DNA from: Patescibacteria group bacterium
GTDB taxonomy: Bacteria; Patescibacteriota; Saccharimonadia; CAILAD01; GCA-016700035
Reading direction: 5' to 3'
Length of the DNA stretch: 43,717 bases
Assembly (NCBI GenBank): GCA_030917125.1
Contig: JAUPVH010000001.1
Location: 1 to 43,717 of the forward strand
The stretch's first letter is position 1, and each line of letters starts with the position of its first letter. This document shows positions 4,962-43,717 of this stretch, piece by piece. The position numbers and the translations under genes are program-made. Under the pieces are notes generated by a model. That model did no database searches. It was given only the letters and a program-made list of their open reading frames with translations, and had not been told where the DNA came from.

Positions 4962-6387
4962 GTATTATCTGACAACTTCAATTCCGTATGCCAATGCTAA
5001 GCCGCATTTGGGTCATGCGATGGAGTTTATTCAAGCCGATACGCTTGCTCGTTGGCATCGACAGCGGGGCGAGGAGGTTTATTTTCAGATAGGAACCGAT
5101 GAACACGGTCAAAAGCTCTTTGAGGCCGCGGAACAAGCGGGTGCCGAGCCGTTGAGTTTTGTGAATGAGATGAGCGAAACCTTCGTACAGTTGGCGGGTG
5201 ACTTGAACGTTGATTATGACGCGTTTGTGCGTACCACTGATGCGCATCATAAAAAAGGTGCGCAAGCTTTGTGGCAAGCCTGCGAGAAAGATATATATAA
5301 AGGTACCTATACAGGTACCTACTGTGTAGCTTGTGAGTTATTTTATACTGCAAAAGATGCGGTTGAAGGAATGTGCCCGGTTCATCCAAATCGAGCGCTG
5401 GAAGATTTGGAGATTGAAAGTTACTTTTTGAAGCTGGCACCATATCAAGAAAAATTGATTGAGCTCATCGAAACGGATGCATACAAAATTTTTCCAGCCC
5501 TGCGCAAAAATGAAATTTTAAGTTTCCTTAAAAATAATCAGCTTGAAGATTTATCAGTTTCCCGACCGAAGACTCAGTTAGTATGGGGTGTTGAAGTTCC
5601 GGGCGACAACTCGCACGTGATGTACGTGTGGTTTGATGCGTTGGCGAATTATATAACTGGCGTGGGTTATCCTGATGAGCCGAATTTTGCAAAGTGGTGG
5701 CCGGCCGATTTGCATATTGTGGGTAAGGATATTAACCGTTTTCACTCAGTTTACTGGCCAATTATGTTGATGAGTGCTGGAGTAGAGCTTCCAAAGGCAC
5801 TGTATGTGCATGGGTTTATTAATGCAGCTGGTGGCGTAAAAATGAGTAAAAGCCTGGGCAATTCAGTTAGTCCTGAAGAAATTTTGCAGCGTTATGGTAC
5901 GGATGCTTTGCGGTATTACCTGCTCCGGTATATACCCCATGATGCTGATGGCGAGTTTGGCTTAGAGCGTTTTCATGCCGTGTATACAGCCGATCTTGTG
6001 AATAATTTAGGGAATTTGGTGCAGCGGGTTGCCAGTATGACGACAAAATATTGTGACGGTAAGTTTGAAATAGCGGTTACAGGAACCCCATCTCATCTTG
6101 ATGACTTAGAAGATGCTGCTTTTGATGATGCGCTACAAAAAATCTGGAAAGAGTTGGATGCTTTAAATGAAGCCATCGACAAAAACGAGCCGTGGAAACT
6201 CGCAAAAACCGATTTGCAAGCCACTCAAAAACTCTTATATGAATGGATTGGGGATATTCTTAAGCTATCGGCGGCTCTCGCACCATTTTTGCCATCGACT
6301 GCTGAAAAAATACACAATATATTTACGGATGGTCGTGTGGATATGCACGTTGGTATGTTGTTCCCGCGCATTGAAAAGGAAGACTAG
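4939..6387 (+). CDS. metG: methionyl-tRNA synthetase (minimal form, no C-terminal dimerisation domain)
   Basis: PYANAKPHLGH (HIGH) and KMSKSLGN (KMSKS) motifs, and a CVACELFY...CPVH knuckle. Track ORF 4834 trimmed to ATG 4939 (MANQKQNKYYLTT). Overlaps the end of the previous gene by 23 nt. Confidence 0.92.
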   Translation: MANQKQNKYYLTTSIPYANAKPHLGHAMEFIQADTLARWHRQRGEEVYFQIGTDEHGQKLFEAAEQAGAEPLSFVNEMSETFVQLAGDLNVDYDAFVRTTDAHHKKGAQALWQACEKDIYKGTYTGTYCVACELFYTAKDAVEGMCPVHPNRALEDLEIESYFLKLAPYQEKLIELIETDAYKIFPALRKNEILSFLKNNQLEDLSVSRPKTQLVWGVEVPGDNSHVMYVWFDALANYITGVGYPDEPNFAKWWPADLHIVGKDINRFHSVYWPIMLMSAGVELPKALYVHGFINAAGGVKMSKSLGNSVSPEEILQRYGTDALRYYLLRYIPHDADGEFGLERFHAVYTADLVNNLGNLVQRVASMTTKYCDGKFEIAVTGTPSHLDDLEDAAFDDALQKIWKELDALNEAIDKNEPWKLAKTDLQATQKLLYEWIGDILKLSAALAPFLPSTAEKIHNIFTDGRVDMHVGMLFPRIEKED

Positions 6388-7173: not shown

Positions 7174-8327
7174 GTCGATACTACTTTGACTATGCCGCCG
7201 CCACGCCGATAGACGAGGATGTTGTTCGTGCTATGGAATCGGCTCGGACTACCTTTGCCAATCCAGCCAGCCTGTACGCAGAAGGGCGTGCAGCTCGTGA
7301 GTTGCTCGATGCTGCCCGTAAGCGTATTGCAGCTGTTTTAGGGGCGCAATCTCGGGAGATTGTGTTTACCAGCGGTGCCACGGAGTCTGACAATTTGGCA
7401 ATTCTTGGTGCTTTAACGGCTGCGGGCGAGCCTCAAGCCAGAGTTATTACTGCACCAACTGAGCACGCTGCGGTACGAGCATGTACCCAAGTGGCGCGGG
7501 CGAGTGGTTATGATGTGCAGGAAGTCGAAGTTGCAGAATCTGGCATGATTAATGTTGAGACGGTTCGAAAACGCGTAACCGATACGACAGTTTTATTGAC
7601 GCTGGCGATTGCTACGAGCGAAATCGGCACCTTTCAGCCAATCGGTGAAATTGGTCAGTTGGTGCGAGAGGTTAGGGTCGATCGACAAAAACGGGGTATC
7701 GCCACGCCAATTATTTTACATACCGATGCCTCGGCGGCGCTGGGCTATTTACCGCTACCCGTAGATCGGTTGGGAGTGGATTTGATGACGCTTTCGAGCA
7801 GTAAGACGTATGGGCCGGTAGGGATTGGTGCGCTTTATGTGCGTCGTGGTACGCCGTTAACACCATTGATTATTGGTGGACGACAGGAAGCGAGCTTACG
7901 TTCAGGTACACCGGCAGTTGAGTTGGCGGTTGGTTTTGCTACAGCTACGGAAAAAGCCGAAGCAATGCGTAAGCAAGAAGTTACGCGTCTTCAGGTGTTG
8001 CACGATGAACTTTGGATGGGTCTCAAAGCTATCTCGGGGATACAGCTGAATGGACATAAGAAGAAGCATTTGGCAGGAATGTTAAATGTTTCATTTGCGG
8101 GCTTTGATGGCGAAAATTTAGTTTTAGCGCTCGATGCGGCTGGCTTTGCAGTGGCAACCGGAGCCGCTTGCGCTGAATCAAGTGACGAGCCAAGTCATGT
8201 ACTCCTAGCTTTAGGCAGAACTCGCGCTGAAGCTCAGGGGAGTTTACGGATCTCATTAGGGCGCACCACAACTTCAGAAGAGGTTCAGGCTCTCATCAGC
8301 GCAATTCGCAAAATCGTCGTACAATAA
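7170..8327 (+). CDS. cysteine desulfurase (class V aminotransferase, NifS/IscS-like)
   Basis: FTSGATESDN, HTDA, SSSKTYGP (PLP lysine) and ATGAACAES (active-site Cys loop). The GTG start overlaps the tatD stop (GTGA). Confidence 0.85.
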   Translation: MSRYYFDYAAATPIDEDVVRAMESARTTFANPASLYAEGRAARELLDAARKRIAAVLGAQSREIVFTSGATESDNLAILGALTAAGEPQARVITAPTEHAAVRACTQVARASGYDVQEVEVAESGMINVETVRKRVTDTTVLLTLAIATSEIGTFQPIGEIGQLVREVRVDRQKRGIATPIILHTDASAALGYLPLPVDRLGVDLMTLSSSKTYGPVGIGALYVRRGTPLTPLIIGGRQEASLRSGTPAVELAVGFATATEKAEAMRKQEVTRLQVLHDELWMGLKAISGIQLNGHKKKHLAGMLNVSFAGFDGENLVLALDAAGFAVATGAACAESSDEPSHVLLALGRTRAEAQGSLRISLGRTTTSEEVQALISAIRKIVVQ

Positions 8328-8331
8328 ACGT

Positions 8332-8961
8332 ATGATTTTTCATCGCAAGAAAGAAAAGAAGCGCCGTAGTAGAACCAGAAAATTTATCGGTTTTTTGGTT
8401 GGGCTGTTTTTCCTACTAGGGCTGTTTGCAGCAGCAGTATTTGGCTCGGCTATTTATTTATCGCCGCAGGATTCTACCAGCCCCGCAGATGCCATCGTGG
8501 TGGTTTCCGGGGGGCAAACCCAAACCAGGGCCAAGCACGGTATTGAGCTCTACAAAAAAGATTTAGCACCGAAGATTGTTTTTTCGGGCGCGGCGCTTGA
8601 TGATGGTCCGTCCAATGCTCGAGAGATGGCGGCATTAGCCCGTCGTTCAGGGGTGCCCGAAGAGGCGATTGTAATTGATGAAGATGCAAAGACAACCTAT
8701 GAAAATGCGGTTAATACCAAACGTATATTAGAAGAAAGCAAAGCTAAATCGCTCATACTTGTGACATCACCCTATCATCAGCGTCGGGCATTTATTACGT
8801 TTACAAAAATTCTAGGTGATGGTTTTTCTATTGAGAATAGCTCTAGCTACGATAACGCTTGGAGTAAATCGGCTTGGTGGGCTACGCCATTCGGTGTATG
8901 GATTACTGGCTCTGAGCTAGCCAAAGTAGGTTATATTTATGCCACAGGAAATTATCAATAA
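8332..8961 (+). CDS. DUF218 / YdcF(ElyC/SanA)-family membrane protein
   Basis: N-terminal TM helix, then the VVVSGG...TSPYHQRRA signature of DUF218. Confidence 0.75.
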   Translation: MIFHRKKEKKRRSRTRKFIGFLVGLFFLLGLFAAAVFGSAIYLSPQDSTSPADAIVVVSGGQTQTRAKHGIELYKKDLAPKIVFSGAALDDGPSNAREMAALARRSGVPEEAIVIDEDAKTTYENAVNTKRILEESKAKSLILVTSPYHQRRAFITFTKILGDGFSIENSSSYDNAWSKSAWWATPFGVWITGSELAKVGYIYATGNYQ

Positions 8962-8998: not shown

Positions 8999-9305
8999 TC
9001 AACCTTGTAGAGGCTATGAAGTGGCCTCGAGGCAGTACCGGTTCTAGAATTCGTTCATAAAATCATGTGTGTCTCCGAACGGCAAATTCCAAAATCCATG
9101 ACGTGACACACACCTGACCTTCGGGTCAGTGAGGGTGACCTCTTTGTCAGGGGGTGAAGAGGTCACCCAATAAGTTCCCGCCCCCGCAGCGGGAATCTAC
9201 AGAGCGGACGGCGCGTCCCAGCCCGCCAGTTAACTCTGTAGTGCCGCACCCCAGATGCGGCTGGCCGGGTGGTCTCGAGAGAGATCACCCGGCCATAACT
9301 TTTAT
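8999..9305 (+). ncRNA. candidate structured RNA: tandem array of at least 8 stem-loops, class unknown
   Basis: Stems read directly from the sequence. 9066-9073/9105-9112. 9114-9119/9124-9129 with a UUCG loop. 9133-9144/9157-9168 (12 bp, perfect). 9175-9181/9189-9195 with loop ccccgca. 9197-9204/9234-9241. 9243-9248/9256-9261 with loop ccccaga. 9263-9271/9286-9294 followed by ataactttta. No credible ORF. The strand is inferred only from the promoter and the terminal T-rich tail. Confidence 0.35.
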
Positions 9306-10917: not shown

Positions 10918-11886
10918 ATGGCAACTCCCGATGACAAAATAAAACCAACTGGTCCAAGTATTGCTGATGGCTCGATGGCATATATGCCAAAGCCTGAAGG
11001 TGCAGAAGCAACAGAAGGTGAAGACGAAATTCGTCTTGATCACAATAAGAAGGAAGAAACCCAGACGATGGCCGACATCGCTGAAGAGCTTGGTGGCGAT
11101 AAAATTACCAATACCCCACAGGCCGATGGTGTAAAAGTTGCAGTTAATGATAAGCCCAAAAAAGCTGATATAAAGAAGCCAACTAAGCCTGAACCAGAAG
11201 TTACTCCAGAGATTATTGAGCCAGAAGTTATTGATGATGGCAATATACCGCCTGCCTACGAAGCTGAGCGATCGCATGAAAGTAAGGGCGGCGGTAAGGG
11301 ATTTCTCGTCTTTTTACTGATAGTGGCGCTCGTGGCAGCCGGTATATTTGGATATCTGTGGTGGACCGAAAAGCAGCAAGTCGCCACGCTGCAGTCGGAA
11401 GTTGACAAGCTTACGGAAGCAAACAAGGGGCTTTCAGGAGAAACTACTACTGCGGTTGCTACAAGCGACACCAGAACTATCCCCGAGCTTGGTTTAAGCT
11501 ATGCGTTTGGCGATGATGTTGCGGCTGTCACGTATCGTTTCCGTGAAACCACCGATGCAAACAAGCAGGCTCACAAGGTAATTACGTTTTCTTCCACTAA
11601 GGTGGTTGAAGCCGAGCGAAAAGTTAGTAATACGGCACCAAAGTGTACGGCTGAGTTTGGGCCGCTTGGCTCACTCACCAGCTATGCTACAGGGGATACC
11701 TATAAGGGCGGCAAAATTGAAGATGTAGAAGTCGATAACGAAACCGTGTTAAAGCTGGGCGATACGTATTTTGTATACGAAGCCGCACAGTCAGCCTGTT
11801 CTTCAGACGCTACGGTTCAGGAAGTTGTAACCGCGGAGAAAACTGCCGTACAAGCATTTGTGAAGTCATTAAAGGAGCAGCAATAG
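10918..11886 (+). CDS. hypothetical membrane-anchored protein (acidic/lysine-rich N-terminus, single TM, coiled coil)
   Basis: TM segment FLVFLLIVALVAAGIFGYLWW followed by a TEKQQVATLQ coiled coil. Paralogous architecture to the next gene. Confidence 0.6.
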   Translation: MATPDDKIKPTGPSIADGSMAYMPKPEGAEATEGEDEIRLDHNKKEETQTMADIAEELGGDKITNTPQADGVKVAVNDKPKKADIKKPTKPEPEVTPEIIEPEVIDDGNIPPAYEAERSHESKGGGKGFLVFLLIVALVAAGIFGYLWWTEKQQVATLQSEVDKLTEANKGLSGETTTAVATSDTRTIPELGLSYAFGDDVAAVTYRFRETTDANKQAHKVITFSSTKVVEAERKVSNTAPKCTAEFGPLGSLTSYATGDTYKGGKIEDVEVDNETVLKLGDTYFVYEAAQSACSSDATVQEVVTAEKTAVQAFVKSLKEQQ

Positions 11887-34953: not shown

Positions 34954-37149
34954 ATGAGTAAGGCCAATTACGATCCCTCGGCAACCGAGGCCAAATGGCG
35001 TGCGGTTTGGGATAAGTCGAAAATATACGCGACGCCAGAAAATCCCAAGCGCCCATATTATAATCTCGTGATGTTCCCATATCCATCGGGCAACTTGCAT
35101 GTTGGGCATTGGTATAATTTTGCGCCAGCCGATACACTCGGACGGTTTGAGCGGATGCGTGGCAAAGATGTATTGCAACCACTCGGCTATGACGCCTTCG
35201 GTTTGCCGGCTGAGAATGCGGCAATTAAAAATGGTATTCCAGCGGATGAGTGGACCGATAAAAATACTGTCAGTTTTTATGAGCAGTACAAAACGCTGGG
35301 TGGGATGTATGACTTAGGTCGCTTGGTAAATACCTCCAAACCAGAGTATTACAGGTGGACGCAATGGTTGTTCTTGCAGCTGTATCATGCCGGTAAAGCG
35401 GTGCGCCGCGATGGCACGGTCAACTGGTGCCCGAGTTGTCAGACCGTGCTCGCCAACGAGCAGGTTGTACATGGTGAGTGCGAACGCTGTGGCACAACAG
35501 TCGAGCGTAAAAATCTCAAGCAATGGTATTTTACGATTACCGATTACGCCGATCGTTTGCTCGATGATTTAGATGGGCTCGATTGGCCGGAACGAGTTAA
35601 GCAACAACAGCGCAACTGGATTAGTCGTAGCGAAGGTGCACGCATCGAGTTTACATTGTATGGCAAAGACGAAACGCTCGAGGTATTTACTACTCGTCCG
35701 GATACCATTTTTGGCGCCACCTTTATGGTCGTCGCACCTGAACATCCTTTGGTTGCAGAGCTCACTACTGACAAGCAGCGCGCTGAAGTTGAGCAGTACC
35801 AGCAGTGGGCTGGCGCTCGTACCGATGTTGATCGTATGGAGGCCAAAGAAAAAACTGGCGTGTTTACTGGCGGCTACGTAGTGAACCCGGCAAATGCCGA
35901 AAAAATCCCGGTGTGGGTGGCAGACTATGTGCTGATGGGCTACGGCACTGGTGCCATTATGGCTGTACCAGCCCATGATGAGCGCGACCATGCTTTCGCG
36001 AAGAAATACAATCTACCGATCATTGAGGTTATTGAGCCGGTAACAGGTAAGCATCAGGATAATCCTGAGCACCGTAAGAGTATTGTGGCCTTGGTGCATA
36101 ATCCGCGTACCGACGAAGTTTTAGTGATTAACTGGGGCGCCAAGCAGGGTGGTCATCTTTTGGTGGGTGGTGGTCGTGAGGCGGATGAAGACATTACCGC
36201 TTGTGCAACTCGAGAAGTGATCGAAGAAACAGGCTATACTGGCCTGAAATATATTGGTCAGACCGGCAAAATCCACCATCATTACTTTGCGCACTCTAAG
36301 GGTAAAGCTCGGCACATCGAAGCTGTTGGAGTGCATTTTGAACTCGTTGATAATGAGAAAATCGAAACCAAACTAGAGCGAGATGAGGTTGGGAAGTTTA
36401 GTGTGGAATGGAAGCCAGCCCGCGAAGTTGAAACGATGCTGCAGGATGAGCTGCATAAATACGTGTTTGATGCGTTCTTGCGACAAAATATTCATGCCGG
36501 CACGGGTGTGATGATTAACTCTGGTAAGTTTGATGGCCTGAAAAGTACCGAGGCAAAAAGCCAGATAGTTGCCTGGCTGCATAAAGGTGGTTTTGGTAAA
36601 GCCACCACCAACTACCGGCTGCGTGATTGGCTGATTTCTCGCCAGCGTTACTGGGGCGCGCCAATTCCGATGATTTACTGCGAAGAATGTGGCGTAGTGC
36701 CGGTACCAGAAAAAGATCTGCCGGTTGTTCTACCAGTTGGGCAGGAGTTCGATAAGACTGGCCGCTCACCATTGCACACGCATCCGGATTACGCAAAAGT
36801 TGACTGTCCGCAGTGCGGCAATGCCGATGCTCGCCGCGAGACGGATACCATGGATACATTCGTAGATTCCAGCTGGTACTTTTTGCGCTACCCAAATCCG
36901 AACTATGACAAGGCGGCGTTTGATCCAGAAGCTGTTAAGAAGTGGCTGCCCGTCGATCGTTACATGGGTGGTGTGGAGCACGCTATTTTACATCTTTTGT
37001 ACTCGCGTTTTATTACTAAGTTCTTGCATGATCAAAAGCTCGTAGCTTTTGATGAGCCATTCACCAAGCTAATTAATCAGGGAATGATTCTTGGCCCAGA
37101 TGGTAATAAAATGAGTAAGTCTAAGGGTAACGTTATTGACCCGCTGTAG
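34954..37149 (+). CDS. leuS: leucyl-tRNA synthetase, N-terminal 731-aa fragment (Rossmann fold, CP1 editing domain with inserted Nudix domain, KMSKS), ending at an in-frame TAG
   Basis: [11 protein letters not shown] (HIGH), [31 protein letters not shown] and KMSKSKGN. The -10 tataat (34941-34946) is 7 nt from the ATG. Confidence 0.9.
   Translation: [731 protein letters not shown]
36034..36504 (+). other. Nudix-hydrolase domain inserted inside the LeuRS editing (CP1) domain
   Basis: About 157 residues lie between LPIIEVI and [12 protein letters not shown], where E. coli and B. subtilis (from memory) have about 13-20. A perfect Nudix box [23 protein letters not shown] (Gx5Ex7REVxEExGY) lies at 36169-36237. 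Confidence 0.8.
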
Positions 37150-37152
37150 TAT

Positions 37153-37815
37153 GTGGAGAAATACGGCGCCGACGCGGTACGTTTGTATCTGATGTTTATG
37201 GGGCCGTGGGAAGATGGTGGTCCGTGGGATCCACAGCGCTTTGAAGGTACGTATCGCTTCTTGCAAAAAGTCTATGCCACGATTTCTGCCGCGTATGAAG
37301 TTCAGGAAATTGATGCTGCTGCCGAAACTACGCTGGATTCTGCACTGCACAAACTGGTTAAGAAAGTTACTGAAGATCTGGAAAACACCCGCTTTAACAC
37401 AGCGATTGCTGCCATGATGGAGTACATTACATTGCTTGGAAAAAGCCAACGCGCTGGTGATGTGTCGGTAGAGTTGTGGCGTGAACACGTACAGACCTTC
37501 GTGCGCCTGATTGCTCCATTTGCACCGTTTTTAGCTGAAGAATTGTGGCAAGAACTTGGCGAACAAGAGAGCGTGCATCTGGAAGCTTGGCCAACGTTTG
37601 ATGAAACAAAAGCACGTGATGAGCTCGCAACGATTGCCGTTCAGGTAAATGGTAAGCTGCGCGGTGAGTTTGTCATGGAGGCCGGCAAGTTGCCAGGCGC
37701 AATCGAAGAGCAGGCTCGTGGCTTGAATGCCGAACACAATTGGACACGCGGTGCACAAGTGGTGAAGGTGATTGTGGTACCAGACCGGCTCGTCAACTTT
37801 GTCGTCGCTCGGTAG
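37153..37815 (+). CDS. leuS: leucyl-tRNA synthetase, C-terminal 220-aa fragment (anticodon-binding and C-terminal domains), same frame as the N-fragment
   Basis: [15 protein letters not shown] follows KMSKS exactly as in intact LeuRS. The GTG at 37153 is one codon after the TAG at 37147-37149. Confidence 0.85.
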   Translation: [220 protein letters not shown]

Positions 37816-37835
37816 AGTGGGTGTGTTAACCCGCA

Positions 37836-37864
37836 TTGACAAAAAACTTATTCTTTGCTATAAA
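37836..37864 (+). promoter_or_regulatory. sigma70-like promoter driving a GC-rich cassette
   Basis: ttgaca (37836-37841), 17-nt spacer, tataaa (37859-37864). Confidence 0.5.
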
Positions 37865-37924
37865 TAGCGGGTTATTGCATCTCGCAGTATCCGCACCCCA
37901 TACGAGACCCTTAGGAGGTCCACC

Positions 37925-38467
37925 ATGTCCGTCACGGACGAACCCCGAACCGAGAAGCAGAAGGCGGTCAAGTCACCGCCCCAGCCGATCGACGAGGACA
38001 AGAAGAAGAACAAGGACGTCGTTGTGATCTCCGCAGCTGTCGTCTTCATCTTTGCGTTCTTGGCGTTGGTAGTCTTCCTCAGCAACGTCATCAACATCTC
38101 GCCGGAGGTCAACTCCGCCGAGGACATCGCCACGGTCTACGACCACGCGATCGTCTTGCAGGCTCGAGAGGGCGACACCCTCGAGACCGCCTCGCTGGCA
38201 GTGTTCCCGAACACGCTCATCGAGCAGCGGGTCCGCGAGGACAAGCTCTCCGATGAGGCCAAGGCCCTGGAGTTGGCTCGGTACCAGGCCGAGTGGCTGC
38301 GCTTGTCGCGTCTACTCACCGGCACCACCGGCACCACGCTCACGGCCGGCGAGTTCTTCGCCGTTCCGGCCAAGCCGGACGAACCGGGTGCGATCGATGT
38401 CGATCGAGCACCCACGGAGATCCGTCGGCTCACCGAAGAGGCCCAGCAGGCTTCCTCAGGCGGCTGA
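37925..38467 (+). CDS. hypothetical single-pass membrane protein, 180 aa (GC-rich cassette)
   Basis: AGGAGG Shine-Dalgarno before the ATG. K/D-rich N-terminus, then TM helix VVISAAVVFIFAFLALVVFL. Very strong G/C third-position bias selects this frame over four overlapping track ORFs. Confidence 0.6.
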   Translation: MSVTDEPRTEKQKAVKSPPQPIDEDKKKNKDVVVISAAVVFIFAFLALVVFLSNVINISPEVNSAEDIATVYDHAIVLQAREGDTLETASLAVFPNTLIEQRVREDKLSDEAKALELARYQAEWLRLSRLLTGTTGTTLTAGEFFAVPAKPDEPGAIDVDRAPTEIRRLTEEAQQASSGG

Positions 38468-38485
38468 CCCTCGGGTCGGCAATCA

Positions 38486-38534
38486 GCCCGCGTGCTTTCC
38501 TCCCCCAGGAGAGAGCACGCGGGCATTCTTTTTT
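38486..38534 (+). terminator. intrinsic terminator
   Basis: Stem gcccgcgtgct/agcacgcgggc (11 bp) with an inner tcct/agga extension, followed by attctttttt. Confidence 0.7.
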
Positions 38535-38553
38535 CTTAGACACTTTCAATATG

Positions 38554-38582
38554 TTGACAAAAACTGACAACTAAAGTATAAT
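38554..38582 (+). promoter_or_regulatory. consensus promoter of a leaderless mRNA
   Basis: ttgaca-N17-tataat. The -10 ends 6 nt before ATG 38589, so the predicted start site falls on or next to the A of the ATG. Confidence 0.6.
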
Positions 38583-38588
38583 AAGCGC

Positions 38589-39350
38589 ATGCAAATCGCA
38601 AATCTTGCCAAAAAACTCGAAGCCGTAGGTCTCACTGAAAAGCAGGCCAAAGTGTATGTTGCCGCTCTATTCTTGGGGCCGGCAGCGGTTCAGCGTATTG
38701 CCGAACAAGCTGAGGTTAACCGAGCTACAACCTACGTAATTTTGGCAGAACTTGCGGATATGGGTCTGGTTTCTGAAACTACCGAAGGTAAAAAGACGGT
38801 ATTTGTGGCTGAACCACCAGATGCAATTGATCGTTATCTCGGAGCAATGGAGAAGGAAATTGACGACCGTAAAGTCCAGCTAAAAGGTGTGATGAAAGAA
38901 CTAAATGAAGTGAATCGCTCTGAAATAGCAGGTGATGCGCCAGTTGTAAGGTTTTTTAAGGGGCCTGAAGCAATACTTGCACTTAGCTCATATCTCAAGC
39001 GTAAGGCGAAGCCAAACGAAGTAGTTTATGGTATGACAAATCTTGATGAACTCGACAAGATGGCACCTGGTTATACCGAAACGAATGCGTTGAAACGCAA
39101 GAAAAAGAAAATTGCTGGTAAGGGTTTTTATTCAGGGTCCAGAGAATTAGTTAGTGACCCAGAGTCGTTACGCGAGACTATCAAGCTTACGGAAGATGTT
39201 AGGGCGGACCTCAATCTATACGAGGAAAGAGCAAGTATAGTTACTTACTCTGGCGATCAGCCAGTAGGTATTGTGATTGAGGGTAAAGAACTCGTATCGG
39301 TTTTACGTCAGTTATTCGACCTGGCGTGGAAAAATCACAAGAAGAAGTAG
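38589..39350 (+). CDS. TrmB-family transcriptional regulator
   Basis: N-terminal winged-helix LEAVGLTEKQAKVYVAALFLGPAAVQRIAEQAEVNRATTYVILAELADMGLV, typical of TrmB. C-terminal effector-like domain. Confidence 0.75.
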   Translation: MQIANLAKKLEAVGLTEKQAKVYVAALFLGPAAVQRIAEQAEVNRATTYVILAELADMGLVSETTEGKKTVFVAEPPDAIDRYLGAMEKEIDDRKVQLKGVMKELNEVNRSEIAGDAPVVRFFKGPEAILALSSYLKRKAKPNEVVYGMTNLDELDKMAPGYTETNALKRKKKKIAGKGFYSGSRELVSDPESLRETIKLTEDVRADLNLYEERASIVTYSGDQPVGIVIEGKELVSVLRQLFDLAWKNHKKK

Positions 39351-39362
39351 TGTTAGTTATTA

Positions 39363-39391
39363 TTGACAAATAAGTAATGCTTGTGTATAAT
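39363..39391 (+). promoter_or_regulatory. consensus promoter with no ORF behind it
   Basis: ttgaca (39363-39368), 17-nt spacer, tataat (39386-39391). Confidence 0.55.
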
Positions 39392-39397
39392 TCGAGC

Positions 39398-39805
39398 GTT
39401 GCTAGCAAAAGCAAGAGGTAAGCCAGTCTTCCTCTGGCTGAGCTGAGACTGGGAGGAAGTTACTTCCAGCCTGCCTAACGGCACAACATGACCCGAAAGG
39501 GGTATTGTGATGGGCGAGTTCACCTGAGCTTCCATCCGAACGTCGGCAACGACATCCAGAGGCTTCGCTCGAAAGCCGAACCTGATCTAGCGTAGAACGC
39601 CGGATCGAAGCATGACCCAAACTGCCAGGTGGCGCAAAAAAGTTGGGCGCGCTTGCTCGACATCCTTGAATTAAGCAGCAAATAACGCAAAAAAGACAGG
39701 AAGAAGAGCATCAAATCGAGCATCGGGGTGACCCCGTAACACGCGGGGTCACCCCTAAACATCTCTATTAAGAACTTATGCAAGACCTTAAACGGGTCTT
39801 TTTTT
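39398..39805 (+). ncRNA. candidate ~400-nt structured RNA of unknown class, bounded by its own promoter and terminator
   Basis: No credible ORF; only antisense low-complexity track ORFs. GNRA-capped hairpins (ccc GAAA ggg, gtcg GCAA cgac). ggaag tta cttcc. A 12-bp perfect hairpin 39725-39736/39744-39755. Terminator aagacc/ggtctt plus a T7 run at 39782-39805. Confidence 0.45.
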
Positions 39806-39946
39806 GTGTGTAATGACGGAAAATAATCTAGGTTACTCATAGTCAGCAAATTGTTGCTGATAGAGTTTATCAACAAATAGGCACTATTTTGCGGAATATA
39901 TGAAACTGTACTGATTGAGAGATAGGAGAAAAAATGCAAATAATAA

Positions 39947-39975
39947 TTGACAATAAGGTATGATATTGCTATAAT
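39947..39975 (+). promoter_or_regulatory. consensus promoter of the GC-rich three-gene operon
   Basis: ttgaca (39947-39952), 17-nt spacer, tataat (39970-39975). Confidence 0.55.
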
Positions 39976-40066
39976 CTCATAGATCTGTCAACCCCGCTTA
40001 GCGCGGGTGTAGATGGATGCAACTTCGCAAATCCAATCCCAATTCCACCCATCAAGGAGTCCCAAC

Positions 40067-40768
40067 GTGTCCAACGACACCAGCAACGAGACCAGCCTGG
40101 CAGTTCCCGCACCATCGCGTCGCGCGCTCGCGCTCGTCGAGATGACCGAGACTGTCCAGGAGCTCATCGACACCCACGGCGTCGAGCTCGACATCCCTGT
40201 CGAGCAGGTCGCCAGCATGGCGGTGGAGCGCAAGCTCTCCGTCGAAGAGGTCGACGCTTTGCTCCTGGCTCGCCAGGACTACGCCGCCCGCTTCCCGGTG
40301 ATGGATCTGCTGCTTCGCAGCGGCTTCACCACCGATCAGATCCATGCGGCCTACGCCTTCGTGGATCAGCATGACCTCGAGCAGGATCGCAAGATCGAGG
40401 CTGCGCCCATCTCGGGCGTGGTCGAGGAGCCCGAGAGTCTGGCCGACCTGGTGCGTCGTTCGACCACCGAGCCGGCCCGTGCCCGCGAGCATGAGGGTGC
40501 GACCGAGATGGACGTGAATCGTCGTCACAAGTACGTGGCGATGATCGCAACCTGGTTCGCAACCTTCGACGTCTTCGACGACCTCGCTGAGGATCTCGAT
40601 GGCGCCATCAGTCTGTTGACCGACCTCGCCGCCAAGGCGCGCGAGGCGCGTTTCGTCAAGGCCGAGATGAACGACCTCGATGTACTCACGAGACTGCTGG
40701 TTCGAGTTCAGGGCCAGGGTATCGAGACGTACGACGGGGTCCTCCGACTCTTCGCCGAAAGGAGCTGA
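40067..40768 (+). CDS. hypothetical acidic protein (GC-rich operon, gene 1)
   Basis: GTG 40067 has an AAGGAG Shine-Dalgarno at 40054-40059 (the track start ATG 40013 is possible but lacks one). Third-position G/C bias selects this frame over the antisense and alternative ORFs. No motif recognised. Confidence 0.5.
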   Translation: MSNDTSNETSLAVPAPSRRALALVEMTETVQELIDTHGVELDIPVEQVASMAVERKLSVEEVDALLLARQDYAARFPVMDLLLRSGFTTDQIHAAYAFVDQHDLEQDRKIEAAPISGVVEEPESLADLVRRSTTEPARAREHEGATEMDVNRRHKYVAMIATWFATFDVFDDLAEDLDGAISLLTDLAAKAREARFVKAEMNDLDVLTRLLVRVQGQGIETYDGVLRLFAERS

Positions 40769-40773
40769 AGAAC

Positions 40774-41874
40774 ATGACGGGAATCAACCCGTTTCTGGTG
40801 CTCGGTCTGAACGTGACGGTGCTGGGGGGATTGTCCGATGAGGACATCCTCCAGCTCGCCAAGAGTCAGTACCGAGCACTCTCGCAGATCCATCACCCCG
40901 ATCGCGGTGGTGATGCCGATCTGTTCGCACTCCTCTCGGATGCCTACGAGTCCCTCCAGGACTCACGGGCCCGTCAGGAGAAGCTCGAGGAGTACCGCAC
41001 CTCTCGTTTGGACCAGCTCACGCTGGTCCAGCAGGAGCTCACGGATCTCGAGCGTCAACGTCGACGAGATAATCGTCGACTTCGCCGACATACCGCCGAC
41101 TTCATGGCGGACTTCGTGCGGTCACAGCACACCGAGACGGCCCAGCCGCTCAACGTGCACGATCTCACGCTGGTCGTGCAGGATCGGCACTCCGACTTCA
41201 TGTCGGGGGCTCTGTCGACCGACGCTGAGCGGAACAAGGCGGAGTTCATCGAGCACTACACTACGCATGGCTTCAAGGTCGTGCGGCGCGTTGGTGGTCA
41301 CGTTTCGGTGGCAGACTTGCAGGTAATGCAGGTGATGCCATCGAGCGACTTCACGCCGGCCCGCTTCAAGCAGTTTGCTGCCGAGTTCACCCACGTCGGT
41401 GCCCGTAAGAAGGCGCCGTACCCCAGCTACAACAGCTGGTACCGGGTGGACCTTGAGTCGACTGAGGCTTACGAGAATCAGTTGCGACAGCTTGAGATTG
41501 AGGCAGAAGCCGAGGGTCGTACCCTCGAGGATGCCCCAATCGATCCGACGTCAGCGCTCTACTGCTACGAAGAGCAGTCGACAGAAGCGACCGACTGGGC
41601 GCTGATTGGCACACTGTCAGACGGCCTCATCGGAACCGACGCCAGGGGCGACGCTGCTCCTGGTGCAGCCATGGAGCGCATGCTCGAGTCGGCTGCCGTG
41701 CCGAATCTCCGCGAGGAGCTCGAGCGCGGTTATAGCTTCGAGCGGTTCCAGTACTACCTGGACCAGCTCGAAGCTGAATTCTCCGAAGATGGTTACCTTG
41801 TGGCCGCGCGCCTTGAGGACGACCAAATTCGGTTCATGCTGGTGGGGAAGATCGTCCCTCATCAGGAACTCTGA
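40774..41874 (+). CDS. J-domain (DnaJ-like) protein with an uncharacterised ~290-aa C-terminal region (GC-rich operon, gene 2)
   Basis: N-terminal INPFLVLGL...LAKSQYRALSQIHHPDRGGDADLFALLSDAYESL carries the HPD tripeptide in a J-domain helix II/III context. No Gly/Phe or zinc-finger DnaJ regions. AAAGGAG Shine-Dalgarno. Starts 5 nt after the gene 1 stop. Confidence 0.75.
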   Translation: MTGINPFLVLGLNVTVLGGLSDEDILQLAKSQYRALSQIHHPDRGGDADLFALLSDAYESLQDSRARQEKLEEYRTSRLDQLTLVQQELTDLERQRRRDNRRLRRHTADFMADFVRSQHTETAQPLNVHDLTLVVQDRHSDFMSGALSTDAERNKAEFIEHYTTHGFKVVRRVGGHVSVADLQVMQVMPSSDFTPARFKQFAAEFTHVGARKKAPYPSYNSWYRVDLESTEAYENQLRQLEIEAEAEGRTLEDAPIDPTSALYCYEEQSTEATDWALIGTLSDGLIGTDARGDAAPGAAMERMLESAAVPNLREELERGYSFERFQYYLDQLEAEFSEDGYLVAARLEDDQIRFMLVGKIVPHQEL

Positions 41875-41894
41875 GACACAACAAGGAGGACCAA

Positions 41895-42182
41895 GTGGGA
41901 CGAACCCCGCGACGCACCCCCACAAAGGAGGAGCTCGACAAGTGGGAGCAGCTGCTGGCCGGCGACGGCCTGGCAGCAATCCCCGACGAGCACCCTGATG
42001 AAGGGGAACCACCAACCGAGTTCGAAGTCGGTCTCGGCTCCGCGTCAGCTCCCCCTGACGATGAGGAGTCCGAGGCTCTCGAACTGGGTGCGGATCTGCC
42101 CGATGGCATGGACGGTGAGGACGAACTCGTGGATGAACACGAGGGAGACCTCCACGCCTACATCATCGTGGACGAGGGCTGA
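41895..42182 (+). CDS. hypothetical highly acidic protein, 95 aa (GC-rich operon, gene 3)
   Basis: GTG start with an AAGGAGG Shine-Dalgarno at 41883-41889. D/E-rich sequence. The terminator follows. Confidence 0.5.
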   Translation: MGRTPRRTPTKEELDKWEQLLAGDGLAAIPDEHPDEGEPPTEFEVGLGSASAPPDDEESEALELGADLPDGMDGEDELVDEHEGDLHAYIIVDEG

Positions 42183-42205
42183 GCTTTCGAGTTCGGCTTC
42201 TCAAG

Positions 42206-42236
42206 CGGCCAGCGCATGCGCTGGCCGTTACTTTTT
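42206..42236 (+). terminator. intrinsic terminator of the three-gene operon
   Basis: cggccagcg catg cgctggccg (9-bp stem) followed by ttacttttt. Confidence 0.7.
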
Positions 42237-42409
42237 ACTGACGTACTCTGACGCATAATTAAGCTATCGATAATAAAATCTGACAAATAAATGCACTTTT
42301 TCATGCTGAAATTCAGTTTATTTATAGTTAAAATAACAGTTTTTATACGAAAATCTACAGATACATAGCTAGTTTTCAGCAAAAAATCATAATAAATTGA
42401 CAATAAGTA

Positions 42410-42438
42410 TTGACAAAAAATATAGCATATGCTACTAT
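42410..42438 (+). promoter_or_regulatory. promoter with an operator-like perfect palindrome in the spacer
   Basis: ttgaca (42410-42415; a second ttgaca at 42397-42402), 17-nt spacer, tactat (42433-42438). The 12-bp palindrome tagcatatgcta lies at 42423-42434. Confidence 0.45.
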
Positions 42439-42467
42439 ATCATCATTGTGAATTTCGTCAGGAGTTC

Positions 42468-42524
42468 ATGACAAAAAAGAACCTTTACTTTAGCTGGCTG
42501 GTGGTCATATTTTTGTGCGAGTAA
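42468..42524 (+). CDS. 18-codon upstream ORF / leader peptide MTKKNLYFSWLVVIFLCE
   Basis: AGGAG at 42460-42464, 3 nt before the ATG. The ORF runs through the 5' arm of the start-codon-sequestering hairpin. Hydrophobic peptide. Confidence 0.35.
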   Translation: MTKKNLYFSWLVVIFLCE

Positions 42525-42551
42525 CATATATCGCCTAAAAATATGACCACC
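42500..42551 (+). promoter_or_regulatory. 15-bp perfect hairpin sequestering the start codon of ORF 42543..42776
   Basis: ggtggtcatattttt (42500-42514) pairs with aaaaatatgaccacc (42537-42551). The ATG at 42543-42545 lies inside the 3' arm, and no Shine-Dalgarno precedes it. Confidence 0.55.
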
Positions 42552-42776
42552 ACATGCAACAGCATCACCCATGTCCATCCCCGGGCCCACCAGCCCCTCA
42601 ACAGGTACTGTGTCCACTGCGGTCGTCTCGGCCGAGCTCCGGAGTGCGCGAGCTGCCGTGAGGCCGCAACAGAGCCGAAGGAGGTGGACGACTACACGGG
42701 CTTCATCATCACCGACGACGGCGACGAGATCGGCCTGATCTCCGACCCGTACCGAGAGTGCATGGAGTTGGTGTAG
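42543..42776 (+). CDS. hypothetical small zinc-ribbon protein, 77 aa (GC-rich cassette)
   Basis: CVHC...CASC cysteine pairs, acidic C-terminus, G/C third-position bias. Confidence 0.5.
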   Translation: MTTTCNSITHVHPRAHQPLNRYCVHCGRLGRAPECASCREAATEPKEVDDYTGFIITDDGDEIGLISDPYRECMELV

Positions 42777-43717
42777 TCACTATCGAATAAGATTCGGGGT
42801 ACTTTGGTAGTGCCTGGCAACAGAAGTTGATCGGAGAGAAAAAGAATCCGTGACACATTAACCCGTCAGTGAAGACGTAAACCCCGAGCCAGTGAGATGT
42901 GGCTTTCAAGCGCGATTCCCGTGCAGCTCATACCCCTTCTTGGGGCAGATTACCTGCTCCAAGAAGGAGCAGTCCGAGGATAGTTATCCTCGCTGATGAG
43001 TCCTGATAGGACGAAACTGCTTTGAAAACTTAGGTAATCCCACGCTGGCTGTTATGCCACACGAGCGTATGTGCGCATTGCCTATCAATATTTTTCAAAC
43101 ACCACACATCAGTTTTTAGTTCTTTTAAACCTGGAAGCCTATACTTCCAGCGCGGCGTAGGCGGCGTTGTTCCTCGAGGGCAGTGCTCGCTCGCGTCGCG
43201 CCGGGAGTATAGCTTCCAAAGTACAAGGGCATCGAAAGCCATTCCTCTCTCCTCTCCAGGTGAGTAGGTGTCCTGCTGGGTCGAGTTCGTCTCGACCCAG
43301 CGAATTCGCTAACCGTTGACCCGCGTACGAATGCGGGGGCCTTTTGAAGCGAGAGCTACGCAGTTGCGTCCTCGAGTGAAACAGGCTGAGCCCATGCGTG
43401 TGGGCTTGCTGGGAGATAAAATTGGTAAAACTGCGCCTGCGTCGGTAACGACGACACCCCAAAGGGTGACCACGAAAGTGGTGGGAAGTAAACAAAGGTA
43501 GAAAAGGGGACCCCAACGGTTATAATGCGGTATTGTCTTCCCCTTTGGTCAGACCTTGAAAAAGTCTGGTTCTATGAAAGGACGATGCCGAGCTCGCGCG
43601 ACTTCCACACCCTTCACCCTTCCTCTTCGTGGAGGTCGCTGCGCGCCGGGAGTGCCGCTTGTGGTTTCTAAGGCTTCGGTCTTGATCACTTGCGTCCACA
43701 CTGTGGGGTAATAGCAC
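42777..43717 (+). other. ORF-poor, hairpin-dense GC-rich region (candidate large structured RNA or RNAs), truncated by the window end
   Basis: The only track ORFs here are low-complexity and Arg/Ser/Pro-rich. Long-range pair tcggggt (42793-42799) with accccga (42880-42886). Hairpins at 43021-43099, 43133-43217, 43276-43300, 43320-43345 (terminator-like) and about 43591-43650. CU-rich tracts at 43243-43257 and 43607-43628. Confidence 0.4.
42969..43020 (+). ncRNA. type III hammerhead self-cleaving ribozyme
   Basis: gcagUC / cgaggat-aguu-auccucg (stem I) / CUGAUGA / gucc-ugaua-ggac (stem II) / GAAA / cugc (stem III, open). All invariant core positions are present. The predicted cleavage site is after C42974. 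Confidence 0.8.

Follow-up and report, generated by a model that had tools for sequence, protein, structure and literature searches.

A candidate large, pseudoknotted non-coding RNA linked to a hammerhead ribozyme near ssrA in Saccharimonadia

The 43,717-nt stretch of Saccharimonadia DNA analysed here (the window) ends in a large structured element that directly follows a type III hammerhead ribozyme and lies on the plus strand. Its fold is kept by compensatory changes in relatives, which bears out the central claim of the initial annotation, that a large non-coding structured RNA is physically linked to the ribozyme. We hold, with slightly better than even confidence, that this is a genuine structured ncRNA of ~0.8 kb (42975 to ~43775) and an autonomous module in a mobile-element-like, ribozyme-punctuated cassette region beside ssrA. 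Several independent, terminated RNA genes had also been envisaged; what we find instead is one multi-domain RNA, apparently embedded in a longer transcription unit.

Coding potential, strand and conservation

After the stop codon at 42776 no reading frame is conserved, as the sequence had first suggested, with 4 to 14 stops per frame. The longest ORF, of 125 aa on the minus strand (43139-43516), and the plus-strand ORFs of 48-61 aa are all broken in the homologous loci L023 and L024 by indels of 1-2 nt and by large replacements. We therefore rejected a protein-coding reading of 42777-43717, since homologue indels disrupt all ORFs. The description of the region as GC-rich was overstated, its GC content being 52.9% against 50.3% in the window.

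The 941 nt of the region fold at -378.7 kcal/mol on the plus strand (z -6.3 versus shuffles) and at -343.4 kcal/mol on the minus strand (z -5.0), so that the minimum free energy (MFE) is 35 kcal/mol lower on the plus strand. In a hand count over the pair table of the 3' domain, G-U and U-G make up ~11% of the paired cells, and some of these pairs are invariant. We assign the RNA to the plus strand on two grounds: G-U pairs, which the complementary strand would render as A-C mismatches, are abundant, and the MFE of the plus strand is the lower one.

The comparison drew on five copies from about three lineages, four of them close (the window, L002, L023 and L024) and one distant (L014). Identity to L023/L024 is 89-93% in domain D1 and 91-94% in the 3' domain, compared with 81.6% for leuS and 82% for the tmRNA in the same genomes. 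Much of the 3' domain is invariant across the copies, and such positions say nothing on pairing. Over the four close sequences, 97.4% of the cells in the 3' domain are paired, and 11 pairs have changed on both sides versus 5.1 in shuffled alignments (reached in 0 of 500); slid controls gave 0-3.

A covariance model, R1, was built only from the four close copies (window 43466-43601). It identified the core in L014 at 8770-8891 with 40.2 bits and an E value of 1.1e-6, the next match scoring 14 bits. By sequence alone the same core is found with an E value of 0.57, and structure contributes ~30 bits. When L014 is included (alignment A12, fitted to the model structure except for helix Pb), 99.4% of cells are paired and 16 of 32 pairs are double-changed, versus 3.6 in shuffled alignments (0/500) and 0-4 in slid ones. 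Pb, which had been left out of the model, is paired in every scorable cell (one L014 cell is a gap) and shows 3 double changes. In a manual alignment, helix Pa is replaced in L014 by AGACACU/AGUGUCU. Across these five sequences, compensatory changes stand above the controls and no reading frame is conserved, which marks the element as a conserved structured ncRNA.

Anatomy of the large RNA

All features below are given on the plus strand. Domain D1 (43023-43132), as drawn by RNAalifold from four sequences, consists of a small branched fold (43034-43083) and an invariant U-rich stretch (~43100-43132, ACACAUCAGUUUUUAGUUCUUU.AAACC) that is predicted to be single-stranded. An 80-nt hairpin had been proposed at 43021-43099; as a whole it folds no better than shuffles (z -0.15), nor does D1 taken by itself, and only its inner part, 43034-43083, is retained in the consensus. 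The stem at 43133-43217 is real, but with ~38 bp (-57.7 kcal/mol, z -7.1) it is longer than the ~20 bp first read. Its basal 21 bp are conserved and its apex is variable, L023 and L024 having a shorter apex and one covarying pair. This hairpin carries the first copy of the repeat GCGCCGGGAGT.

A lineage-specific variable segment follows (43218-43305, alignment A3), in place of which L023 and L024 have ~330 nt of other sequence; the segment itself has no blastn match in these two loci. The 10-bp perfect hairpin noted earlier at 43276-43300 is present and sits in this segment. The CU tract at 43242-43257 is likewise there, but it is not conserved, being within the part that is replaced in L023/L024.

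Next comes a multi-hairpin domain (43306-43526; RNAalifold and pair counts on alignment A4), which is closed by the long-range helix Pa (43310-43318 with 43514-43522). It holds the hairpin 43320-43337, other covarying hairpins and a GNRA hairpin, Ph (43469-43473 with 43478-43482). The sequence at 43320-43345 had been described as terminator-like. Its hairpin is real and covarying, but the terminator scan does not report it and it lies inside the Pa-closed domain. The tail, CCUUUUG, contains only 4 U and reads GAGUUG in L024, where the U-run is gone.

The pseudoknotted core spans 43503-43590, as defined by R1 and A12. The pseudoknot helix Pb (43503-43510 with 43539-43546) crosses both Pa and the core helix Pc (43528-43538 with 43580-43590), and a further core helix, Pd (43547-43554 with 43564-43573), presents the loop CUUGAAAAA. 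The consensus scan placed a promoter-like TAGAAA-16-TATAAT inside the invariant core (43499-43526); given this internal site, part of the sequence conservation of the core could be DNA-level.

Downstream of the core, the long hairpin seen by the initial annotation was located at 43595-43643, with 14 bp and a 20-nt CU-rich loop that reads exactly ACCCUUCACCCUUCCUCUUC. In RNAalifold and the pair counts on A4 this helix (helix 14) is 100% paired, with two pairs varying on one side. Its loop retains CCUUCCUCU in the four close copies, so the suggestion of anti-Shine-Dalgarno CU tracts survives for this loop; it fails for the equivalent loop of L014, which differs and is not CU-rich, and for the second, unconserved tract. 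The repeat GCGCCGGGAGT does occur twice, at 43198-43208 and 43643-43653 (1-2 nt off the earlier coordinates; 0.02 expected by chance), and its second copy begins at the 3' edge of this hairpin.

The last domain is a three-way junction, of which the 5' part and both inner arms lie at 43645-43717 (RNAalifold on A4, helices 15-20) and whose closing helix, 43645-43655 with ~43714-43724, leaves the window. The junction hardly varies between genomes whose leuS genes differ by 18%. The element had been thought to run off the window, and indeed in locus L003 the RNA extends ~60-90 nt beyond the window, with a small hairpin followed by a UUCG hairpin, to ~43775 (window-equivalent). The next ORF downstream starts at window-equivalent 43805 in L003.

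Ribozyme, proposed transcription unit and neighbouring genes

The hammerhead at 42967-43022 matches Rfam RF00008 (type III) over model positions 1-54 of 54, scoring 51.3 bits where the gathering threshold is 48.5, in agreement with its first identification. It has the core CUGAUGAG ... CGAAAC and a GUC cleavage triplet, and self-cleavage is predicted after the GUC (C42974), between 42974 and 42975. A covarying hammerhead was found at every related locus (L002, L016, L019, L023, L024 and, in two copies, L014), with compensatory changes in all three stems. Stem I reads CGAGG/CCUCG, CCAGG/CCUGG or CUGCUGA/UCAGCA, stem II reads UCC/GGA or UCU/AGA, and stem III varies with its pairing kept. These related hammerheads score 49.5-53.3 bits, apart from the two L014 copies (42.3 and 37.8 bits, under the gathering score), which bracket a 4-kb block containing the ring-nuclease gene, the RNA and a J-domain gene set. 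In the window itself, an Rfam search of 37000-42200 at E<=10 found no second hammerhead upstream. A competitor hairpin blocking stem III, proposed by RNAalifold, was dropped: in a 101-nt fold the upstream hairpin and the active ribozyme coexist.

Upstream of the ribozyme, the consensus scan identified a promoter-like site, P3 (TTGACA-17-TACTAT with TG, 42410-42438, plus strand), which is the likely start of the unit. Across 39300-43717 the scan found 12 promoter-like sites versus 2.1 expected, and in L016 and L019 the AT-rich sequence 5' of the homologous small ORF contains similar TTGACA sites. A leader hairpin of ~25 bp (42490-42560, plus strand), found through weak miRNA-model matches, includes in its 3' arm the ATG (42543) of a 77-aa ORF. 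Judged by eye, this start-codon pairing seems to recur in L016/L019. The ORF (42543-42776, plus strand) has a zinc-ribbon-like CxxC...CxxC pattern and homologous ORFs in L019 and L016; it had no match in Pfam, PHROG or PADLOC.

Between this ORF and the ribozyme lies a plus-strand spacer (42777-42966), in which 42805-42881 is conserved in L023, L024, L016 and L019 by blastn and nhmmer, and a 14-bp hairpin (42935-42967, from the fold) abuts ribozyme stem III. The helix tcggggt/accccga, said to close a multibranch domain at 42793-42886, could not be upheld: it is missing from the MFE fold, and its 3' strand is unconserved in the same four loci. Around the large RNA, the terminator and promoter scan found neither a promoter nor a terminator of its own, so the RNA may never exist as a separate molecule.

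These features suggest a mechanism in which a long transcription unit would begin at the promoter-like 42410-42438 and carry the hammerhead, the large RNA and the downstream genes. The hammerhead would cut after C42974 and split off the upstream mRNA, leaving the large RNA with a 5'-OH end and beginning with the ribozyme body. The RNA might then act as a stable folded RNA, or as an RNA-protein particle, of the accessory cassette region.

The proposed unit runs from the zinc-ribbon-like ORF and the spacer through the type III hammerhead and the large RNA to a small variable ORF, and then to a Crn4b-like gene and the tmRNA. The order from the hammerhead to the Crn4-like gene and the tmRNA holds in L003, L016/17, L019/20, L023 and L024, and at every locus seen the tmRNA lies 10 nt after the stop of the Crn4-like gene. 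In L003 the tmRNA (5732-6079, 110 bits in Rfam) is 2 kb downstream of the region. ARAGORN missed tmRNAs that Rfam detected. The ORF directly 3' of the RNA differs per genome, encoding 103 aa, 144 aa or a 117-aa lipoprotein.

The 121-aa product of the Crn4-like gene (L003 5356-5721) matches 9r7b_A with an hmmsearch E value of 2.4e-18, and its structural model (pLDDT 93.6) gave a Foldseek E value of 3e-10 and TM scores of 0.67-0.73; PADLOC labels it Unk_01. By homology of sequence and predicted fold, it is a Crn4-like putative ring nuclease. Across 14 homologues T14, H16 and R106 do not vary, and R116 and R120 are invariant or nearly so. These conserved Thr, His and Arg residues are taken as counterparts of the Crn4a catalytic residues T13/H15/R112, the matching Arg being ambiguous among the candidates. 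Crn4b on phages and plasmids is a putative anti-CRISPR (Chi et al. 2025, PMC12830947; PDB 9r7b). At the present locus it is the neighbouring gene, not the RNA, that matches the Crn4b profile and predicted fold, and here it always sits just 5' of the tmRNA. In the scanned part of the window we noticed no sign of type III CRISPR or of a CARF effector.

The large RNA is present in the window, L002, L023 and L024 and absent from the close relatives L016 and L019, where a spacer of ~230-250 nt takes its place; it is thus dispensable in these relatives. In L014 the core is relocated: it follows the ring-nuclease gene and precedes a separate promoter. Because L014 keeps the core elsewhere and L016 and L019 lack the RNA, we regard it as an autonomous module and not a mere leader. 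In the multi-hairpin domain, strain L002 has swapped hairpin alleles with pairing retained, and strains whose leuS genes are 99.95% identical show mosaic alleles. To either side of ssrA, variable cassette ORFs are preceded by a repeated leader element.

The locus occupies a conserved chromosomal position (TrmB-like gene ... ssrA) and is not an obvious prophage, with no integrase in the flanks of the related loci examined. Public phage and plasmid records gave no blastn match to the region, and exact and degenerate conserved-core patterns gave 0 matches in viral contigs. We attributed 87 viral-contig matches to a 15-mer to chance, as none fits the nhmmer profile of the region (E<=0.01). The hammerhead-core pattern retrieved one unrelated hammerhead only from the viral contigs (L115). 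The J-domain and 77-aa proteins, when used as anchors, led to few relatives, and the best contig for the P0003 relative, of 16 kb in JGI 3300059473, has a correctly placed 993-nt gap.

Alternative explanations and comparison with known RNAs

Visual resemblances had raised the prospect that the region is a known RNA (a divergent RNase P, a tmRNA fragment, a minus-strand CsrB/RsmZ sponge, ROOL, GOLLD, HEARO or OLE) or hides a protein gene, such as the 125-aa minus-strand ORF. We consider this very improbable. A cmscan of both strands of 42100-43717 against 4227 families at E<=10 returned the hammerhead alone, and Rfam 15 assigned no known family to the large RNA at the related loci L003, L002, L014, L023 and L024. 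Over the whole window at the gathering threshold, and over 37000-42200 at E<=10, only the hammerhead and a tRNA-Ala were found. With the frames broken in homologues as well, no housekeeping RNA family or coding frame accounts for the region.

The supposed minus-strand likeness to RNase P CR-II/III has no RNase P match on either strand at E<=10, nor in L003, L002, L023 or L024. The GGA-rich sponge of CsrB/RsmZ type has no Rfam match, and its main tract (43242-43257) is unconserved. Both of these minus-strand readings were rejected because the G-U pairs and the MFE favour the plus strand. A tmRNA identity was discarded, the only such signal within the region in the E<=10 scan being an 8.6-bit noise match to alpha_tmRNA, and so was a tmRNA-derived origin, since the sole blastn-short similarity to the neighbouring tmRNA, which is the real one, stops at the 12-mer TGGCAACAGAAG (42815-42826). 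RNAduplex energies between the large RNA and the tmRNA are no better than with shuffled tmRNA. ROOL, GOLLD, OLE, HEARO and raiA were rejected in the same way, with no match at E<=10 under permissive filters and none at the homologous loci.

An explanation at the DNA level would make the region a set of recombination or insertion sites, for example a MITE-like insertion or attachment sites of a gene-cassette array beside ssrA, with conservation reflecting DNA function or recent horizontal spread. The presence and absence of the element in relatives, its relocation in L014, the mosaic alleles of near-identical strains, the long near-perfect inverted repeats, the repeated leader element before cassette ORFs and the promoter-like site within the invariant core would all fit. 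However, the strand asymmetry in MFE and G-U pairs, invariant ones included, is not expected of double-stranded DNA sites, and the pseudoknot and long-range helices covary. Moreover, the nearby proteins scanned include no integrase or transposase, and a non-exhaustive look noticed no bounding terminal inverted or direct repeats. We regard this explanation as improbable.

A more serious, though still rather unlikely, alternative is a cis-acting leader, in which the region is a long 5' UTR or intercistronic segment with no role as a free RNA. After cleavage it would protect the RNA of the downstream cassette, the ring nuclease and the pre-tmRNA, or control translation, for instance through CU-rich loops sequestering Shine-Dalgarno sequences. 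Such a role would suit an RNA that lies inside a transcription unit without its own promoter or terminator, that keeps CCUUCCUCU in the loop of 43595-43643 in four copies, and that belongs to a conserved hammerhead-to-gene arrangement in which the short-type loci have their ~230-250-nt leader in the same place. Hammerheads of prophage operons, too, are thought to divide long transcripts into gene-length pieces (PMC3088659). Against this, the L014 core lies 3' of the ring-nuclease gene and 5' of a separate promoter, so that it is not that gene's leader, and L014 does not keep the CU-rich loop. The immediately downstream ORF varies by genome, making a gene-specific regulator unlikely, and the pseudoknotted core outdoes leuS and the tmRNA in conservation, which is beyond what a stabiliser needs.

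Large, intricately folded bacterial RNAs are rare, and RNase P, OLE, ROOL and GOLLD each revealed unexpected biology. We know of none of such type described from Saccharimonadia, epibiotic bacteria with tiny genomes in which each retained element is likely to matter. Work by Weinberg and colleagues from 2009 and 2017 reportedly found ROOL and GOLLD in prophages, next to tRNA genes. The present RNA resembles ROOL, GOLLD, OLE and raiA in being several hundred nucleotides long, multi-domain, pseudoknotted, non-coding and patchily distributed, and, by analogy, appears comparable in kind to ROOL and GOLLD. Its place in a mobile-element-like region by the tRNA-like ssrA recalls their tRNA neighbours. 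Unlike them, it appears to be embedded in an mRNA-containing transcript, has a hammerhead as its 5' boundary and has so far been seen only in Saccharimonadia. Three-dimensional structures of large ornate bacterial RNAs (ROOL and GOLLD; also OLE and raiA) have been described (PMC12286853).

Bacterial hammerheads flank genes of prophage operons, for example the anti-restriction gene ardA in Agrobacterium tumefaciens (Perreault et al. 2011, PMC3088659). Here, similarly, a canonical hammerhead separates genes of a polycistronic unit that has something of a mobile element about it, and it precedes a Crn4b-like putative anti-defence gene where those of A. tumefaciens flank ardA. In contrast to the prophage operons, ~0.8 kb of conserved structured RNA, not coding sequence, directly follows the ribozyme.

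Regulatory RNAs such as RoxS and FsrA of Bacillus and RsaE of Staphylococcus, whose C-rich or CU-rich loops pair with Shine-Dalgarno sequences, are 100-200 nt long and each have a promoter and a terminator of their own. The CU-rich 20-nt loop on the stable hairpin 43595-43643, with CCUUCCUCU in its four copies, is similar, but it is a single element in a much larger fold and is not retained in L014.

Returning to the autonomous ncRNA that we favour, a bolder proposal, which we put forward tentatively and consider unlikely as a whole, is that it is the first of a new class of large pseudoknotted 'ornate' RNAs in candidate-phyla-radiation bacteria. Such an RNA would have its 5' end made by a hammerhead and would work with a Crn4-type ring nuclease in an ssrA-anchored, ribozyme-punctuated accessory or anti-defence cassette array; in L014-like relatives, excision would give the RNA 5'-OH and 2',3'-cyclic phosphate ends, and it could even be circularised. 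Crn4-type ring nucleases destroy cyclic-oligoadenylate immune signals. If the RNA belongs to the ring-nuclease function, it would connect a new RNA fold with ribozyme processing and with anti-defence biology. The RNA exceeds leuS and the tmRNA in conservation between species, yet near-identical strains swap its hairpin alleles, a pattern typical of conflict loci. The covariance model for 43466-43601 can now be used for metagenome searches.

The non-coding stretch upstream of ssrA

The window comes from the chromosome of a Candidatus Saccharimonadia bacterium. Among its genes are ddl, murF and a leuS that contains a NUDIX insert, and a Saccharimonadia MAG holds a relative of one neighbouring gene. 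A 77-aa zinc-ribbon-like ORF with a CxxC...CxxC pattern (42543-42776) ends with the stop at 42776. From 42777 onwards, open stretches in any frame reach 126 codons at most, and every frame carries 4-14 stops. To extend the contig, exact matches to the 366-aa J-domain protein were looked up, which gave ten contigs of the same locus. L003, 99.8% identical to the window, extends 1257 nt further, and L002 is a second strain of the locus. The non-coding stretch runs on to ~43804 (window-equivalent, L003) and is followed by ORFs of 103 and 121 aa and then by the tmRNA gene (L003 5732-6079; 110 bits), which starts 10 nt past the stop of the 121-aa ORF. The L003 extension therefore defines a ~1.03-kb gap between two small ORFs, upstream of ssrA.

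Rfam searches of both strands, even at E<=10, gave nothing besides a type III hammerhead, which occupies 42967-43022, scores 51.3 bits (gathering threshold 48.5) and is predicted to cleave at 42974/42975. For the 941-nt region, the computed folding energy is -378.7 kcal/mol (z -6.3) for the plus strand and -343.4 kcal/mol (z -5.0) for the minus strand. Behind the hammerhead, D1 (43023-43132) is a small branched fold followed by an invariant U-rich stretch, predicted single-stranded. A 38-bp hairpin (43133-43217; z -7.1) has a conserved base and a variable apex, and the adjoining lineage-specific segment (43218-43305), with a CU tract and a 10-bp hairpin, is replaced in the relatives L023 and L024. 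Helix Pa (43310-43318 with 43514-43522) closes a multi-hairpin domain. The core comprises Ph (43469-73 with 43478-82), Pb (43503-10 with 43539-46), Pc (43528-38 with 43580-90) and Pd (43547-54 with 43564-73). A hairpin with a 20-nt CU-rich loop (43595-43643), a three-way junction from 43645 that closes slightly past the window end, and a UUCG hairpin at ~43750-43775 in L003 complete the RNA.

Several features proposed in the initial annotation have to be revised. The label "GC-rich" was overstated (52.9% GC, against 50.3% in the window), the closing helix within 42793-42886 is unconserved, and the 43021-43099 hairpin is not significant alone. What was taken for a terminator (43320-43345) is a covarying hairpin internal to the RNA; the terminator scan does not call it, and its U-run is gone in L024. 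Minus-strand resemblances to RNase P and CsrB find no model support and are contradicted by the strand evidence. The duplication of GCGCCGGGAGT holds, with two copies versus 0.02 expected, located in different helices.

Two observations concern the flanking genes. In the window, leuS has an in-frame TAG at 37147-37149, a codon that reads CAG in L023, L024 and L001, the last from the same species. The 953-aa gene is thereby divided into ORFs of 731 and 220 aa, through either a sequencing error or a nonsense mutation in an essential gene. For the 77-aa ORF, which has no evident Shine-Dalgarno, the start codon at 42543 lies in the 3' arm of a ~25-bp hairpin (42490-42560); by eye, a paired start codon seemingly recurs in L016 and L019.

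Evidence for a structured RNA on the plus strand

Four lines of evidence indicate that the region is a structured RNA on the plus strand. Between the window and L002 (leuS identity 99.95%), the coding sequence flanking the gap differs at two positions only, both in the 95-aa ORF, against ~90 positions within the gap. Entire hairpins are exchanged with pairing preserved, for example CCAC-GAAA-GUGG to CCCC-GAGA-GGGG and GCGUCGguaaCGACG to UGCGGaaauuCCGCA.

In L023 and L024, identity to the window is 81.6% for leuS and 82% for tmRNA, compared with 89-93% for D1 and 91-94% for the 3' domain; 1-2-nt loop indels and the replaced central segment interrupt all ORFs. Pair counting on an RNAalifold consensus of the 3' domain gave 144 pairs with 97.4% of cells paired, and both-side changes in 11 pairs versus 5.1 in shuffled alignments (0/500) and 0-3 with slid partners, much of the domain being invariant and uninformative on pairing. 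G-U pairs make up ~11% of paired cells by hand count, which points to the plus strand only.

R1, a covariance model of the core (43466-43601), was trained on four close copies only, with the distant contig L014 left out. It matched L014 at full length (8770-8891; 40.2 bits, E 1.1e-6, 660 kb searched), and the next match, unrelated, scored 14 bits. A sequence-only profile reached 9.9 bits (E 0.57) on L014; the signal is therefore carried by structure. In the core alignment of five copies from about three lineages, with L014 fitted to the model except at Pb, 99.4% of cells pair and 16 of the 32 pairs show double changes (3.6 when shuffled, 0/500; 0-4 when slid). Pb, which crosses Pa and Pc, was left out of R1 and is an independent test of the pseudoknot: all its scorable cells pair and three pairs are doubly changed. 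By manual alignment, Pa changes from UAACCGUUG/CAACGGUUA to AGACACU/AGUGUCU in L014.

A promoter-like TATAAT lies within the invariant core (43499-43526). Several independent assemblies end inside the RNA (L001 and L006 at 43031, L010 at 43144, L008 at 43278), starting where strain alleles begin to diverge (first difference 43032), a pattern consistent with RNA alleles that co-exist in the populations sampled.

A predicted ring-nuclease neighbour in a modular locus

Profile and structure comparisons assign the 121-aa protein to the Crn4b-type ring nucleases. It matches PDB 9r7b (E 2.4e-18) and the PADLOC model "Unk_01" (E 9e-22), its AlphaFold model (pLDDT 93.6) aligns with Crn4 structures at Foldseek TM 0.67-0.73, and the types of residue implicated in catalysis (Thr, His and Arg) are conserved. 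The gene (L003 5356-5721) lies, together with the tmRNA gene, ~1.6-2.4 kb past the window end, and the two are also adjacent in L016/17, L019/20, L023 and L024. Crn4b genes are also found on plasmids and in phages, where they are putative anti-CRISPRs (PMC12830947); in the part of the window scanned, no type III CRISPR genes were seen. In L027, a twister-P1-like match at 9152-9206, downstream of another Crn4-like gene, scores 47.2 bits (E 2e-7) against a gathering threshold of 67.2, so a second self-cleaving ribozyme class may accompany this protein family.

Relatives were found with the 121-aa protein as anchor, and collections were scanned with a J-domain protein alignment. The TrmB-to-ssrA region is modular. 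L019/L020 and L016/L017 share the order TrmB-like regulator ... small zinc-ribbon ORF, hammerhead ... 121-aa gene, tmRNA; L023 and L024 lack a homologue of the zinc-ribbon ORF and have other small ORFs in its place. The ORF directly before the ring-nuclease gene is different in each genome. The window has a three-gene J-domain block that L019, L023 and L024 lack and that occupies another place in L014. The large RNA likewise behaves as a module: the window, L002, L023 and L024 have it, a ~230-250-nt spacer takes its place in L016 and L019, and in L014 it follows the ring-nuclease gene.

The J-domain block (40013-42182; 62% GC versus 50% for the genome) encodes a 251-aa protein, a 366-aa protein with a weak J domain and an acidic 95-aa protein, without family matches beyond the weak DnaJ hit, and has its own perfect promoter (39947-39975) and terminator (42204-42229). 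In L014, two near-identical type III hammerheads in the same orientation, 4054 nt apart (7419-7474 and 11473-11524, the second with a stem III of only 3 bp), enclose the Crn4-like gene, RNA core and J-domain gene block; no tmRNA was detected at this locus. On both sides of ssrA, small variable cassette ORFs, among them lipoproteins and acidic proteins, are preceded by a recurrent leader element that spans ~60-110 nt and includes a UUCG hairpin and CCAACCAGAG... (L003 4876-4975, window-equivalent 43747-43846; L016 3303-3417, 3808-3900 and 4255-4349; L024 7890-7945), a layout that looks like a gene-cassette array. The 12-mer TGGCAACAGAAG is common to the pre-hammerhead spacer (42815-42826; kept in L023/L024) and tmRNA nt 157-168 (L003 5888-5899), which may be chance (E 0.03, small search).

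Transcription, possible role and a second candidate RNA

A strong promoter-like site lies at 42410-42438, the preceding J-domain unit is closed by its terminator, and a scan from 42438 to the window end found no terminator. These features suggest that one transcript would carry the zinc-ribbon ORF, hammerhead, large RNA, cassette ORF, ring nuclease and possibly pre-tmRNA. Cleavage by the hammerhead would release the mRNA upstream of it and give the large RNA a 5'-OH end.

We favour an autonomous module over a gene-specific leader because the core recurs elsewhere in L014, the downstream ORF varies from genome to genome, and the core is more conserved than leuS and tmRNA. The main rival is a cis-acting role, stabilising or translational. 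In kind, the large ornate RNAs ROOL and GOLLD come nearest, together with the prophage operons of Perreault et al. that are punctuated by hammerheads, which there flank the anti-restriction gene ardA (PMC3088659); we claim membership in neither, because no models match.

Immediately past the TrmB-like gene lies a perfect TTGACA-17-TATAAT promoter (39363-39391), and behind it come ~400 nt without an ORF. The stretch is strongly structured (39363-39800; z -6.3) and has no Rfam match. At its end are two hairpins that resemble terminators, one at 39724-39755 and one at 39782-39800 with a T-run. Conservation in L023/L024 is 77-81%, and the stretch is a second ncRNA candidate.
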